Sequence record: NC_052662.1
Reading direction: 5' to 3' (one strand)
Source of the DNA: Escherichia phage Mt1B1_P17
Length of the DNA: 64,000 nucleotides
Shown here piece after piece: positions 1 to 15,947 of this stretch. A program made the position numbers and the translations under genes. The notes beneath the pieces were generated by a model. The model was not told the DNA's origin, did no database searches, and worked only from the letters and a program-made list of their open reading frames with translations. Numbering within the stretch: the first letter of the stretch is position 1; each line of letters opens with the position of its first letter.

Positions 1-51
1 AACGCGAATTTTCGGGCCGTCAGGTCCACGCAGCGACAATTCCCAAATATC

Positions 52-255
52 ATGCGAATGAGAATAATTATCATTCGTATTCAATGACTTATGCAAGGCT
101 CATGCCAACGTAGCGACAAGGTGGGCCACTTGATTATAAATCACACAAACACTTATTTATCAATAGGTTGGCAACTTCATCATATGACGGAACAATGTCA
201 ACTAATCCCGCTCATGACAAGCAGACTATTATTCATATGAGAATGATTATTATTT
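52..255. repeat. two Fur-box-like imperfect palindromes (ATGCGAATGAGAATAATTATCATTCGT at 52..77; ATGAGAATGATTATTATTT at 237..255) in AT-rich non-coding DNA
   Basis: Read directly; near match to the 7-1-7 Fur-box pattern TGATAATnATTATCA; same motif family recurs at 13293..13407. Confidence 0.4.
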
Positions 256-564
256 AAACGTTTATTAACATAAAAACCAGAATAAATCAAGAATTTTCTG
301 ATTTTATTTACGTTTAAGAGAAGATGCTCAACATATCGCTACGCGATAGTATTCGCCCCCAAAAGTATTGACTTTTATTCTATTATGTGCACACTATGCA
401 ACCTGTCGCTATTCGCTCATGTTGCTACGTGCAATTATTCATCTTGCTAATGATTTCATATTGTAATTATTACAATGATTATTGTTATTGCGCTAATGTT
501 ATGATCTTGGTAATTACATATAATGCTAATAATAAGCCAGCGCAATAAGTGTAAGCGTCATTAC

Positions 565-11942: not shown

Positions 11943-12215
11943 TTAAAGCAAAAACGCTACATCTTGCGCTTTTAGTGTAGTATCAACCATTTTCGGGCTT
12001 TTATAATCAACAAAGCGCGCGGTTTTTTCAATAGCGAAACCGAGATAATCTTGCTTGTTGAAATTACATTCTTTCTTAAATGTTTCCCGTGCAATGGCAA
12101 TCGCTGCGTCCAGGGATAAACGCCCGTCAATATTGATATTAGCGAAAGATCCGCCACCGCTCATAGGTTTACCAGTGGTGCCAGCTACGATCATTGTTGC
12201 GCTATATGATGCCAT
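11943..12215 (-). CDS. hypothetical early protein, about 90 aa
   Basis: Track ORF N-terminus (YHIGRRNGPA) is translated hairpin; start set to internal Met MASYSAT. Confidence 0.45.
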   Translation of the reverse strand: MASYSATMIVAGTTGKPMSGGGSFANINIDGRLSLDAAIAIARETFKKECNFNKQDYLGFAIEKTARFVDYKSPKMVDTTLKAQDVAFLL

Positions 12216-12304
12216 GATGATAATCTCTCTGTTGTGAGCGGCTGGACCATTCCGCCGCCCTATGTGATACATCTTATCAGGTTGTTGTTTGTTGTCAATA
12301 CTTT

Positions 12305-12502
12305 TTATTCTATCCCTGCAATTTGATTAACGCGCTTGCATTTTGTAGCGTGCTGGTCTTCTGTAATGACTCCCATTTCTAACAGGGAATCAATGAAAGA
12401 TAAAACCGTTTCATGATCATCCTGGGGATGACTGAACTCAGTAAAACCGTTTACTATTACGTTGATTTGTCCAGCTTTCGCCACAATATGCAATGTTGCC
12501 AT
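12305..12502 (-). CDS. hypothetical early protein (65 aa)
   Basis: ORF; RBS; TTGACG-N17-TAGTAT promoter about 150 nt upstream. Confidence 0.4.
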   Translation of the reverse strand: MATLHIVAKAGQINVIVNGFTEFSHPQDDHETVLSFIDSLLEMGVITEDQHATKCKRVNQIAGIE

Positions 12503-12775
12503 GATCTTAACTCCAGGTGATGAATGATGTTTTTTGTTGGTGGACGGTGGATTATGGAGATCCTCACCTTTGCCCGTCCTGCATTGCGCCCTCCTGTTGT
12601 TTATTGTCGTTGTGCCGCGCCCCCCTCGACAAGATGAATACTACGCTACCAGGTGAGGAACGTCAACCACTTTTTCAATCTTTTTTATTTTCTTTTTGCT
12701 TGCTATGTATAAAGGAAAGGGCTATTATCTTTCTACCGCGCCAACCAGGGCGCACAACAAAGAAAGGGCGACACC

Positions 12776-13042
12776 ATGACAAATACTACATTACACCTTA
12801 TGCACTCATTGGGCTGGCAAGGCGGAACGGTGCACCAGGTAGCAAGCGCAACGGGCTTAAAGGTTGAAACAGTTCTCAACCTGGGCGATCATAAGGTGGA
12901 AGAGATAGATCATTTTGATACGTTCGCAAATGGTTATCTATGGGCTTGCAGTGGCGGCGGGGAAAGCAAGATACCACCAGGGGCGCGGGGCGATATGTAT
13001 TTTTGGTTAGGTGTCCTATCCTGGCAAGAAAACAAAAAATAA
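12776..13042 (+). CDS. hypothetical protein (88 aa), plus strand inside a minus-strand block
   Basis: ORF with weak RBS; GC-rich surroundings; uncertain. Confidence 0.3.
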   Translation: MTNTTLHLMHSLGWQGGTVHQVASATGLKVETVLNLGDHKVEEIDHFDTFANGYLWACSGGGESKIPPGARGDMYFWLGVLSWQENKK

Positions 13043-13044
13043 TC

Positions 13045-13073
13045 TTGACAAGCCCAGGGATCGGGCTTATACT
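13045..13073 (+). promoter_or_regulatory. near-consensus sigma70 promoter TTGACA-N17-TATACT with no downstream ORF
   Basis: -35 at 13045..13050, -10 at 13068..13073; followed by about 200 nt of GC-rich untranslated sequence. Confidence 0.5.
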
Positions 13074-13292
13074 GTTTTACATACAGAAGAGGAAGCGCCA
13101 CCCCACGGCGTAAAGGCGGGGCTAACATACCAGGGGGCACTGGTTGGAAGGTTGATCGCCGGTAGGCTGGGCGCTATATATTTGTAAAGAAATGTAAAGA
13201 TAAAATAATCACTTGCTTTCCTGGCTGGATCTGTTATTCTTATTACATGGCGAGGGGACACGGGAGCGCGAGACAAACACCGCCCCTGCGCG

Positions 13293-13407
13293 TCATTCTC
13301 TAAATGAGAATGATTATCATTTACTTTATTAAATAAGAATCAATCTCATTTATAAACTTAAATGCGAATCATTATCATTTGCATTTCCACATGAGAACTC
13401 TTCTCAT
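13293..13407. promoter_or_regulatory. cluster of four Fur-box-like imperfect palindromes
   Basis: ATGAGAATGATTATCATT (13304..13321), AGAATCAATCTCATT (13335..13350), ATGCGAATCATTATCATTTGCAT (13362..13384), ATGAGAA-CTC-TTCTCAT (13391..13407); read directly. Confidence 0.45.
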
Positions 13408-13427
13408 TCCCACCTGCATAAATTTTT

Positions 13428-13606
13428 GTAAACTTTAAATTTTGGTTTTGTACTTTCATTTTTGTAAAAGCAAAAAAACTTTAAATACTGTGGGCGCGCA
13501 AAATTTTTAAAATTTTCCTTGACTTTTGAGTTTTGTTTTGTATCTAACATTTTAAGATAATTTTCCTAAACTTTAAATTTTGGTTTTCAACTTTCACTTT
13601 TGTAAA
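13428..13606. repeat. two about 40-bp direct repeats (AAACTTTAAATTTTGGTTTTG/CAACTTTCA...TTTTGTAAA) in AT-rich intergenic DNA
   Basis: Copies at 13428..13468 and 13566..13606; extra AAACTTTAAAT-type and TTTGAGAT motifs nearby. Confidence 0.5.
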
Positions 13607-13857
13607 TTCTTAAAAAGTTTAAATAATTTGAGGAATTTTTGAGATAATAGGTAGTGGGAATTTGAGATAACCTTTAATCTTGTTGGTAAACCTTCAGGAA
13701 CCCACCTAGATCAAATCTTAGCAATGCAAACTGAAAAAGATAAGTGTTCGTATAGGACAAAATAATAGGCTCTCTACGGTGCTGTAGGAGCCTTATTTCT
13801 GTGCTACAAAGTGACGCCTTTGTTCTAAAAATGAAAAAAGTTAAAATATCACAAATA

Positions 13858-14391
13858 TCATCTTTGCGGTATTTTGTCTGGGAAAAGTATTTCTATCAGT
13901 TTGTTATGATATTTACCTAAAAGATTCTGTCCTTTCCAGGTGGCAGGGTTTAGCACCCCTGGTTCATACATCCCCATTCCAATTCCGTATACCTTATCGT
14001 AAGGACTTGCTTCAACAAATGTTTTGTATTGATATAGACGTAAATCGGCATACAAGTCTGGATTCTGTACATACTTCAAGCATAAACCTCGCATAACAAT
14101 ACGCTCACGATTCTCTTCCCATATTTTGTTATCGAAACCTGCTACTGCCCTACCCATACGTTTGTAATAAGCTTGTATCTTCTCATCTTCTCGTTTTAAG
14201 CTATGAGTCAGAATAGCTTGTGCGTTGTTGTGATCGTTAAAGAGCAAAGCTTTACGCCACATCATATATTGTTCTACACAGTTAAATGTTTCATTGTAAC
14301 CTGGTTCGGTTTCTGTAAAGGGTGCAATATACCAATTACTAAACACATCTTTATGTGAAAAGAAGAATACATATTCATCAGTTATTCTCAT
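13858..14391 (-). CDS. NADAR / YbiA-like (DUF1768-type) domain protein
   Basis: Motifs FFF...FSNWY, ...MMWRKALLFND, GRAVAGFD, LVEASPYD..YGIG match the NADAR family pattern from memory; not confirmed by search. Confidence 0.55.
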   Translation of the reverse strand: MRITDEYVFFFSHKDVFSNWYIAPFTETEPGYNETFNCVEQYMMWRKALLFNDHNNAQAILTHSLKREDEKIQAYYKRMGRAVAGFDNKIWEENRERIVMRGLCLKYVQNPDLYADLRLYQYKTFVEASPYDKVYGIGMGMYEPGVLNPATWKGQNLLGKYHNKLIEILFPDKIPQR

Positions 14392-14567
14392 TTTTTCATG
14401 CCTCCTAAGACTTCAGCTTGCCCGTCTTGAAAAGCTTTCATCAGAACTATCTTAAGATTGACTTCCAAACGTTCTTCATCCTCTCTATAACAATCCAACA
14501 CTGCTTTAAGTTCATCATAGTGGTTCAGAATAGGTTTAAAGATTTCATGATCTGCTAAACGTGCCAT
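14388..14567 (-). CDS. hypothetical protein, about 59 aa
   Basis: Internal Met with RBS AAAGGAG. Confidence 0.4.
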   Translation of the reverse strand: MARLADHEIFKPILNHYDELKAVLDCYREDEERLEVNLKIVLMKAFQDGQAEVLGGMKK

Positions 14568-14580
14568 AGTTTCTCCTTTG

Positions 14581-14946
14581 TTAGTCCATCCACCAGTAGC
14601 CATAAACTGCGTCTGCGTCGATGAGTTTGTGTTTGTTGTTCCGCATGTAGTCTAAGATAAGTAGACGTTTATTGTATCTGGAGAGATTATGACCCTCTTT
14701 TCCGCCATAGTCAAAATATTTTGCAAGATCTTTGCACTCAAACAAAATTAGTTCGGGAGTTTCTTCACACTGGTCTGTCTGGTACACTTGACGAATGATC
14801 ATGTATACATCATCGTCTTCCGCTAAATGCTCTACTGGTCCACATCCAGCAGGAACAAATTCATAGTCCCATCTGATCAGATGTTTCTCTACTGCTTCAA
14901 AGAAGTCCATTCTTTCGTTGCGCATAATTTGAACGTCAACTAACAT
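14581..14946 (-). CDS. hypothetical protein (121 aa)
   Basis: ORF; RBS CAGGAGGAAAC. Confidence 0.45.
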   Translation of the reverse strand: MLVDVQIMRNERMDFFEAVEKHLIRWDYEFVPAGCGPVEHLAEDDDVYMIIRQVYQTDQCEETPELILFECKDLAKYFDYGGKEGHNLSRYNKRLLILDYMRNNKHKLIDADAVYGYWWMD

Positions 14947-15947
14947 GTTTCCTCCTGTAATATTCCACCATAAAGTTTATAAATGTTTTGTATTGATGCC
15001 AGACAAGATAGCTCCACTGTTTCTGTGTAGCCGTCTGGCATAGCATATTTGCTCACTGCTTCTGTGTCTAACACCTTTTTGCAATACTTTTCTGAATTTT
15101 TGCACTGCTTCACAGTGGGGAACTGCCACACTTGAACTTGTCTCATAGTAAACACATTGCGGCTATTCTGTTCTTTGATACGGCGATCACTACTATTGGC
15201 AATACCAAACTTCAGTGCACAAAGAATACCATCTTCATCATAAATATGATTAATGTAACATTGTTGTTGGTTTTGGCCCCCGCACTGCGGACACCCACTC
15301 CCCTTATGTAGCAAACCATCTGCACGCCCTATCTGTTCCCCGTGCTCCTTACATCCATATTTAAACTTACCCATTGTTGAAGGTTTACCGATCCATCCTA
15401 CCCATATATATCCTCTCCTTTCTACTTCCTTTCTTGTTCTATAGGTGGTCTGATCCTCTGTGTATTTGTAACTTGTAGAACAGCGGCAAGGGAGACACCC
15501 ACGTTTAAGATGACTTCCGGTAGCATAGAATTTACCATCACACACCCCAGCTTCCACATATTCATCATGAGAGCAAACAGGACATTCAACCATCCATACT
15601 ATATCACACCCTTTACGTTCCCCTGTATTGGTGAAAATAGTGCCTTCCTTAAATTTACCTACCTTCATAAAATCTTGTATGTGTTGCTGGTCTGGAATAG
15701 TGATAGCTTTGCTTCTCTTTTTCGAACGTTCCCTGTAGGCGCACTTAGGACAACCTCGACCATCTTTAAAACTGTGAAACGTTGTAGTATTCCATTCATG
15801 ACCATGCTCACAACGATTGATCATCTTCGTATGCACACCTTTATCTTCTCCATACGTGCCGAGAATGGTAATCCCTTTAGCCTCAGCTATCGGCTTACAT
15901 TCTTCCATATATGTTTCAATACTCTTCTTTACTGACATATCTAACAA
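14940..15947 (-). CDS. Cys-rich (multiple CxxC zinc-ribbon-like) protein with C-terminal T5orf172-type domain
   Basis: C-terminal FGIANSSDRRIKEQN...PDGYTET motif shared with CDS 20722..21708; several CxxC pairs in N-terminal half. Confidence 0.5.
   Translation of the reverse strand: MLDMSVKKSIETYMEECKPIAEAKGITILGTYGEDKGVHTKMINRCEHGHEWNTTTFHSFKDGRGCPKCAYRERSKKRSKAITIPDQQHIQDFMKVGKFKEGTIFTNTGERKGCDIVWMVECPVCSHDEYVEAGVCDGKFYATGSHLKRGCLPCRCSTSYKYTEDQTTYRTRKEVERRGYIWVGWIGKPSTMGKFKYGCKEHGEQIGRADGLLHKGSGCPQCGGQNQQQCYINHIYDEDGILCALKFGIANSSDRRIKEQNSRNVFTMRQVQVWQFPTVKQCKNSEKYCKKVLDTEAVSKYAMPDGYTETVELSCLASIQNIYKLYGGILQEETC

Follow-up and report, generated by a model that had tools for sequence, protein, structure and literature searches.

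A conserved direct-repeat array in an AT-rich early module of Escherichia phage Mt1B1_P17 as a candidate iteron-type replication origin

Iteron origins, such as lambda ori, oriR of plasmid P1 and the origin of pSC101, consist of direct repeats of a binding site which adjoin the most easily melted DNA. The primary origin of phage T7 combines promoters (1.1A/1.1B) with an AT-rich block, and oriF and oriG of phage T4 combine a promoter with an unwinding element. The cis replication element of satellite phage P4, crr, contains two 120-bp direct repeats with short sites for the alpha primase-helicase. Phages of the rV5, phAPEC8 and phi92 groups have a broad host range and are widely used in therapy cocktails, and neither a replication origin nor any further cis-acting control site has been mapped for these groups. 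The authors of the rV5 genome paper were unable to define a replication origin (PMC3606486), and literature searches on origins, iterons, PhageTerm data or transcriptomics in this phage group yielded neither a mapped origin nor a description of the locus presented here. This locus, a pair of direct repeats at 13430-13468 and 13568-13606, lies in a stretch of 64,000 nucleotides of Escherichia phage Mt1B1_P17 (NC_052662.1), referred to below as the window, which belongs to a phAPEC8-like phage (Phapecoctavirus, Stephanstirmvirinae, genome of about 150 kb). It is a concrete candidate for such a control site.

The first-pass annotation of this DNA had reported two direct repeats of about 40 bp, and these proved to be real, with start coordinates differing by 2 nt. 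The 39-mer AAACTTTAAATTTTGGTTTTGTACTTTCATTTTTGTAAA at 13430-13468 recurs at 13568-13606 with three mismatches, and no such second copy appeared in 100 dinucleotide-preserving shuffles. The similarity extends to units of 72 nt, unit 1 at 13421-13492 and unit 2 at 13559-13630, which are 83% identical and 138 bp apart. A degenerate middle copy of 33 nt (13510-13542), which matches the initial 33 nt of unit 1 at 76% identity, completes a family with spacings of 90 and 48. Within each unit the order is the same, AAACTTTAAAT being followed by ACTTTCAyTTTTG and then by AAAsTTTAAATA. Unit 1 carries motif A twice, at 13430-13440 (AAACTTTAAAT) and at 13476-13487 (AAACTTTAAATA), along with motif B (ACTTTCATTTTTG), and unit 2 carries motif A at 13568-13578 and the variant AAAGTTTAAATA at 13614-13625. 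The further short repeats noticed around the pair were also recovered. Exact copies of AAACTTTAAAT start at 13430, 13476 and 13568, with a one-mismatch form, AAAGTTTAAAT, at 13614, and the five other one-mismatch matches in the 64 kb are dispersed and do not exceed the number expected by chance. The 9-mer TTTGAGATAA occurs exactly twice as an exact copy in the 64 kb, at 13638 and 13661; these two plus-strand motifs (13638-13671), 23 bp apart, resemble extended -10 elements (TGaGATAAT / TGaGATAAC), and the 9-mer is also found two to three times 3' of the repeats in phiWec188, KpS8 and 4MG. The four AAAsTTTAAAT cores are restricted to this locus within the window, and elsewhere motifs A and B occur only at chance level. 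The absence of the core motifs from the rest of the 64 kb argues against a phage-wide promoter class, and the earlier suggestion that the repeats might be promoters for a non-sigma70 polymerase is therefore not upheld. Moreover, sigma-70-type promoters are reported throughout the rV5 genome, together with a lack of homologues of the T4 late-transcription proteins (PMC3606486).

The repeat block is the most AT-rich 200-bp segment of the window (78.5%, compared with a mean of 60.7% and a standard deviation of 4%), which bears out its initial description as AT-rich. The 100-bp stretch richest in AT (82%) starts at 13531, and the 100 bp with the lowest duplex stability in the 64 kb start at 13549; both of them, together with the AT-richest 200 bp, fall within 13429-13650. 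The AT-rich spacer between the two units (13493-13558), in which an inverted-repeat search revealed the A/T palindrome AAATTTTTAAAATTTT at 13501-13516, is a candidate DNA-unwinding element.

Comparison with related phages, which had been proposed as a check, shows that the repeats are maintained. Between 13000 and 14000 the window is 97-98% identical to WPEC1, phAPEC8, ASO2A and many other Phapecoctavirus genomes, and both units are near-invariant in five phAPEC8-type genomes (including phAPEC8, ASO2A, anhysbys and tuntematon); the records of the best-annotated of these relatives, phAPEC8 and ASO2A, have no annotation across the repeats. The phiWec188/IMG-VR lineage is about 75% identical to the window across the region. 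Both of its copies share the change from AAACTTTAAATTTTG to AAACTTTAGAATTTG, the 3' core retains the copy-specific C or G, and the spacing is still 138/139 bp. Justusliebigvirus genomes (muut, KKP_3264, BME3 and IMG-VR contigs) possess three units spaced 75+67 bp, which have only the cores ACTTTTCATTTT and AAAAACTTTAAATAA in common with the window. At the syntenic position of Vequintavirinae there are likewise three units, unrelated in sequence to those of the window, with the consensus ...GAAAAATTTTTTC...AATACGwTyT...GAAAAnnCGATCGAGAACC and spacings of 67+75 bp in PVP-SE1 and Av-05, 67+76 bp in 4MG, 67+74 bp in KpS8, and 63+78 bp in CR9 and phiTE. Three direct repeats with a sequence unlike that of the window are located at the same site in Justusliebig-, Seuna-, Mydo-, Avuna-, Certre- and Vequintavirus phages, with 139-143 bp between the first copy and the third. 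When 33 loci were scanned automatically along their self-diagonals, copies 1 and 3 lay 138-143 bp apart, the exceptions being FBKp34 (186 bp) and phiTE and Ro1, which remained under the scan threshold. At least eight genera of large phages of the E. coli type share the site at this position. Since the relatives carry triple repeats of a conserved span, the two repeats of the window are the outer copies of an ancient triple site. The turnover of the sequence, with number, position and span kept, points to a cis-acting site that would be bound by a co-evolving protein. Alignment scores between the repeat blocks of Stephanstirmvirinae and Vequintavirinae were not clearly above those of shuffles in either orientation, and the order of the spacings (75+67 versus 67+75) is only suggestive of one block being the inverted form of the other. 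The sole match in a plasmid search was CP057073.1 (PLSDB pRHB39-C03_2, 137.5 kb), filed as a non-mobilizable E. coli plasmid, with RNA2-like elements, Fur-like boxes (both described below) and three repeats spaced 74+65 bp; its size and content suggest the genome of an rV5-like phage.

Among the explanations considered, an iteron-type, transcription-activated replication origin, used early by the phage, fits the combined features best. It is unproven, and we put it forward tentatively, as a possibility somewhat short of an even chance. Three or more direct repeats are clustered at a single locus, and an AT-rich, easily melted element adjoins them. Moreover, two plus-strand promoters, P1 (TTGACA-17-TATACT, 13045-13073) and P2 (TTGCTT-16-TATTCT, 13213-13240), are oriented toward the array, and comparison of 12 genomes from 8 lineages showed that their hexamers and spacing are conserved and the sequence of their spacers is not. 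P1 and P2 lie 180-380 bp upstream of the AT-rich block, with a hairpin between. PVP-SE1 and KpS8 have an additional good promoter (TTGACA/TTGACT-17-TGaGAAAAT/TGaGATACT) directly upstream of the repeats. According to the proposed mechanism, host RNA polymerase would fire from P1, P2 and weaker local plus-strand promoters toward the AT-rich block after DNA entry. A phage-encoded early DNA-binding protein would occupy the sites (core AAAsTTTAAATA and ACTTTCAyTTTTG) over about 140 bp, bend or wrap the DNA, and open the spacer at 13493-13558, which has an AT content of about 80%. The phage primase-helicase could then be loaded at the opened spacer, the incoming transcript possibly serving as activator or primer, a role likened to that of transcription at lambda ori, the T7 primary origin and T4 oriF/oriG. 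Relatives of this phage carry a primase/helicase of the podovirus type (PMC3606486).

Several observations weigh against an origin at this place. The sites are spaced by about 70 bp, far more than the 18-22 bp of classical iterons (about 20 bp in the iteron origins named above). Unlike those origins, the locus has no adjacent or overlapping initiator gene: the neighbours encode a NADAR-domain protein, an HNH-type endonuclease, an AAA ATPase without an assigned role and unassigned open reading frames (ORFs), and the adjacent small ORF with a helix-turn-helix (HTH)-like motif does not co-vary with the repeat type. An initiator might nevertheless be encoded in another part of the genome. No match to a DnaA box (TTWTNCACA) or an IHF site (WATCAANNNNTTR) was found at 13040-13860. 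The initial remark that iteron-like repeats are typical of origins holds for the array, which is conserved, confined to the locus and fixed in span, and the origin itself is a candidate. The plus-strand promoters of the window beside the repeats are weak or not conserved, the only sites near the block being the weak TTGTAA-17-TGTACT and TTGACT-16-TATCTA. The latter, a sigma-70-like site read directly from the sequence, overlaps the middle copy and is not kept in phiWec188. The cumulative GC-skew minimum is located near 20 kb, at a strand switch, although the skew follows gene orientation. An origin at this gene-orientation switch was also considered and rejected, as neither a non-coding gap nor repeats are present there. 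Finally, the T5 repeat region, which is partly similar to this locus, is not the origin of T5, which according to a T5 preprint maps near the centre of the genome (10.1101/866236).

The likeness to iteron origins goes beyond the repeats and the meltable DNA beside them: here too the repeats are confined to the locus, the sequence shifts between lineages with number and arrangement kept, and transcription is aimed at the site. Tandem promoters upstream of an AT-rich block are shared with the T7 and T4 origins. Unlike at those origins, the promoters belong to the host sigma-70 class and drive, before anything else, two conserved and probably structured RNAs, and an array of Fur-like palindromes lies between the promoters and the AT-rich block. 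P4 crr is comparable in its long direct-repeat units, each with short conserved motifs; it differs in having no sequence similarity to the present repeats, which lack a second ori-like site and for which no alpha-like origin-binding primase was found. The repeats themselves may be an iteron-like cis site, and the module which surrounds them may be the more unusual part. If the origin and its binding protein were known, they would aid phage engineering by indicating safe deletion sites and by providing replicons, for example. Such knowledge could also connect host iron physiology with the development of the phage.

The repeats had been placed in about 450 bp lacking ORFs. The lack of conserved ORFs is confirmed, but the gap is larger (about 13043-13857) and is not empty, since it holds conserved promoters, RNA-like elements and palindromes. 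It corresponds to an unannotated plus-strand module of about 800 bp amid minus-strand early genes, bounded by two bidirectional terminators, in which an 88-aa ORF, the terminator and P1, RNA1, the TTTGTAAAGAAATGTAAAGA element, P2, RNA2, the palindromes, the repeats, the TTTGAGATAA pair and a hairpin follow one another from left to right. The genes flanking the gap are all small and on the minus strand, with the sole exception of the 88-aa ORF (12776-13042, plus strand), which lies just upstream of P1 and is the only plus-strand gene of the early block. Its product contains the HTH-like motif GGTVHQVASATGL and belongs to phrog_19316, with no function assigned. Homologues are present in Av-05, phiTE and FBKp34, and PVP-SE1, KpS8 and 4MG have an unrelated ORF of about 60 aa instead. 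This protein was considered as the repeat binder and rejected as a specificity match: Av-05 and phiTE possess the ORF and yet have the other repeat type. The spacer of P1 doubles as a bidirectional terminator hairpin (13050-13068). The right boundary is a GC-rich hairpin at 13767-13793 with T-runs on both strands, annotated as a terminator in phAPEC8 and ASO2A, which terminates the minus-strand NADAR gene and closes the plus-strand module.

Downstream of P1, a conserved GC-rich element termed RNA1 (about 13080-13185, plus strand) matched 230 phage records at 70-99% identity across Stephanstirmvirinae and Vequintavirinae, among them PVP-SE1, CR8/CR9, phiTE, 4MG, KpS8, Mydo, Ro1 and Av-05; in bacterial genomes it was found only on one short contig of a metagenome-assembled genome. 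Single-nucleotide indels between genera exclude a coding function for RNA1. Its stems are mostly invariant in the 12 aligned genomes, with one covarying pair (AU in 6, GC in 6). Single-sequence folding of the GC-rich element was not significant on either strand (z -1.2, -1.6), and no Rfam family reached the gathering threshold anywhere in the window, the one match in 12000-14500, to a snoRNA, being at the level of chance. The second GC-rich non-coding element, RNA2 (about 13247-13325, plus strand), follows P2 and is conserved in the same 12 genomes. Its closing stem AUGGCG/CGUCAU is changed to AUAGCG/CGCUAU in CR9 and phiTE, and its terminal hairpin is at the same time the first Fur-like palindrome. 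In the segment 13183-13325, TTTGTAAAG and GTAAAGA are invariant in these 12 genomes. Directly upstream of P2, the TTTGTAAAGAAATGTAAAGA element (13183-13200, plus strand), composed of TGTAAAGA twice with 10-bp spacing and essentially invariant in the 12 genomes of 8 lineages, may be an activator site or an UP-like element. From this conservation, RNA1 and RNA2 are probably unannotated structured phage RNAs, each with its own promoter.

Between RNA2 and the repeats, which they adjoin, lie four Fur-box-like palindromes (AATGAGAATnATTCTCATT) at 13303-13408, spaced 29 bp apart. Six matches to this palindrome occur in the window, compared with 0.12 expected. The site at 13306-13324 agrees with the Fur consensus GATAATGATAATCATTATC at 16 of 19 positions, and 13305-13319 with the 7-1-7 motif TGATAATnATTATCA at 13 of 14 specified positions, a score reached also at 59; at up to two mismatches this motif has six sites in the window, against 0.87 expected. 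The palindromes therefore match the Fur box and are predicted Fur sites. Two Fur-like sites (59-73 and 238-252) are situated inside the terminal repeat of 328 bp described below, and a further Fur-box-like palindrome was noticed at 980-994. phiWec188 has seven copies in phase, and the same palindromes are found in the left terminal repeat of T5-like phages (in Repeat Region 3, presumed to be the injection stop signal), the terminal repeat of the Klebsiella jumbo phage Muenster and many Vequintavirinae. A BLAST search of the palindrome against E. coli genomes gave four weak matches, with no iron gene evident beside the two that were inspected. Such arrays might enable the phage to sense Fur of the host or to titrate it. 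The available text of the T5 preprint stresses DnaA boxes and does not mention a resemblance to Fur sites (10.1101/866236). RNA1 and RNA2 with their own promoters, and phased Fur-box-like arrays in virulent phages, appear to be previously unreported.

The position of the module relative to the genome end was derived from database records. The WPEC1 and WPEC2 records begin, and those of Schickermooser, BI-EHEC, WPEC4 and WPEC6 terminate, exactly at window position 1, and in each of these six the end sequence is present twice. The first 328 bp of Schickermooser are the reverse complement of window positions 1-328 (96.6%), and its other end matches the same stretch. These record ends, together with the 328-bp repeat at both ends of Schickermooser, indicate that window position 1 is the physical left end of the genome, where a direct terminal repeat (DTR) occupies 1-328. 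In BME3 (Justusliebigvirus) a DTR of 342 bp was defined by PhageTerm (PMC12210895), and from about the same point onward the BME3 record and the window are colinear. Just inside the terminal repeat, positions 330-1100 form a second long stretch with only short, unconvincing ORFs, AT-rich and of odd low-complexity composition, with many ATTATT, TGATT and GTTGTT runs. The repeats lie 13.4 kb (about 9% of the genome) inward of the left end and are therefore not a packaging or terminus site; the packaging site that had been proposed as an alternative to an origin is not supported, the genome end being 13 kb away.

The same features may be explained without replication. The repeats could bind a phage or host regulator of the plus-strand island or of an early-to-middle switch, as an operator or architectural array, which we regard as rather unlikely. 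The module is a compact transcription unit with two bidirectional terminators, conserved promoters, the doubled TGTAAAGA, Fur-like operators and the TTTGAGATAA motifs, and the DNA preceding P2 is similar (72%) to the 3' portion of unit 2, where a weaker copy of the TGTAAAGA element lies at 13599-13627. The conserved number and spacing of repeats would, moreover, suit any cooperative DNA-binding complex. However, no regulator was identified, the HTH-like ORF not tracking the repeat type, no protein-coding gene is obviously controlled from the locus, and a spacing of about 70 bp combined with extreme AT-richness is atypical for operators. It is more doubtful that the units are tandem weak sigma-70 promoters directed leftward. 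On the minus strand each reads TATTTAAAGTTTTT (A/T-rich and UP-like), TTTACA, 18 nt and CAAAAT (13606-13577 and 13468-13439, 9/12 matches), and transcripts from them would cross the Fur boxes and be antisense to RNA1 and RNA2. Their direction agrees with that of the surrounding early genes, and the phiWec188/IMG-VR lineage keeps TTTACA and CAAATT in both copies with an altered 18-nt spacer. Nevertheless, the -10 hexamer is poor, the 18-nt spacer is unfavourable, conservation in the units falls on motifs A and B and not on the hexamers, and promoter-like sites are only about two-fold enriched in the AT-rich region (14 compared with 6.6). The repeats of Justusliebigvirus and Vequintavirinae, at the same place and with the same geometry, have no equivalent hexamer pair.

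The resemblance to T5 raises the question of whether the locus acts during DNA entry, as an end-associated site for a host factor which pauses or anchors the incoming DNA or recruits Fur. Like Repeat Region 3 of T5, it is a long stretch of conserved, untranslated DNA surrounded by small early genes and situated about 8-9% inward of the left end, and both contain the Fur-box-like palindromes as well as direct repeats in sets. These palindromes are shared with Repeat Region 3 of T5-like phages, where they stand beside direct repeats, with the phage's own terminal repeat and with that of Muenster, and the module, at 13.0-13.8 kb of a genome of about 150 kb (about 9%), compares with a first-step transfer of 7.9% in T5. 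The genes that separate the module from the end are without exception small and directed leftward. T5, however, has paired DnaA boxes, the feature proposed as the stop signal in the T5 preprint (10.1101/866236), and nine GTGCGAATCCGACA repeats, and its region is located within a 10-kb terminal repeat. The present phage has a 328-bp terminal repeat, different repeats and no DnaA boxes in the module, so that neither the paired DnaA boxes nor the long terminal repeat of the T5 stop signal is found and the Fur-like palindromes alone are shared. The 40-bp repeats have no counterpart in T5, and only small ORFs, without a large gene like T5 A1, separate the end from the module. Furthermore, phiTE, PVP-SE1 and rV5 share the module and are reported to be circularly permuted (PMC3475682; PMC3606486), so the site has no fixed distance from an end in these phages. 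A role in DNA entry is accordingly very unlikely. The least probable explanation, which we consider highly improbable, is that the repeats act at the RNA level, the array being transcribed from an upstream plus-strand promoter into a decoy or antitoxin mimic like the pseudo-ToxI of phiTE. PVP-SE1 and KpS8 do show the order promoter, three direct repeats, terminator, and the relative phiTE uses a repetitive RNA against ToxIN (PMC3475682). Pseudo-ToxI is nonetheless a separate locus, at 106.7 kb of phiTE (PMC3475682) as against about 39.5 kb for the module, and the near-identical 36-nt ToxI repeats contrast with units of 67-75 nt (72 in the window) and 63-83% mutual identity. Type III antitoxin-like repeats were not found here, nor was a consistent hairpin common to the units or an Rfam match.

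In a broader interpretation, the whole island of about 800 bp would be one undescribed control locus of the rV5, phAPEC8 and phi92 groups, comprising two sigma-70 promoters, two RNAs, a phased Fur-like array and three iterons (span of about 141 bp), through which the iron status of the host would influence the onset of replication or the entry of DNA. This interpretation is decidedly doubtful. Were it true, Fur could bind the sites itself or be titrated by the growing number of genome copies, and the locus would be partly related to the T5 injection-stop region.

The minus-strand gene at 13858-14391, right of the module, encodes a NADAR domain (Pfam, E=1e-35). Several records matching this region carry the annotation 'GTP cyclohydrolase II', which may refer to the NADAR gene. 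The HNH-type endonuclease gene (14940-15947, minus strand) has syntenic counterparts in muut, PVP-SE1 and FBKp34, and in several lineages it follows the module on its right side within 1-2 kb. Four records, named Campylobacter phage B15, A150 and C3 and Acinetobacter phage vB_AbaM_ABPW7, share 97-99% identity in this region with Phapecoctavirus or Justusliebigvirus phages of E. coli, and their host labels are probably wrong or reflect contamination.

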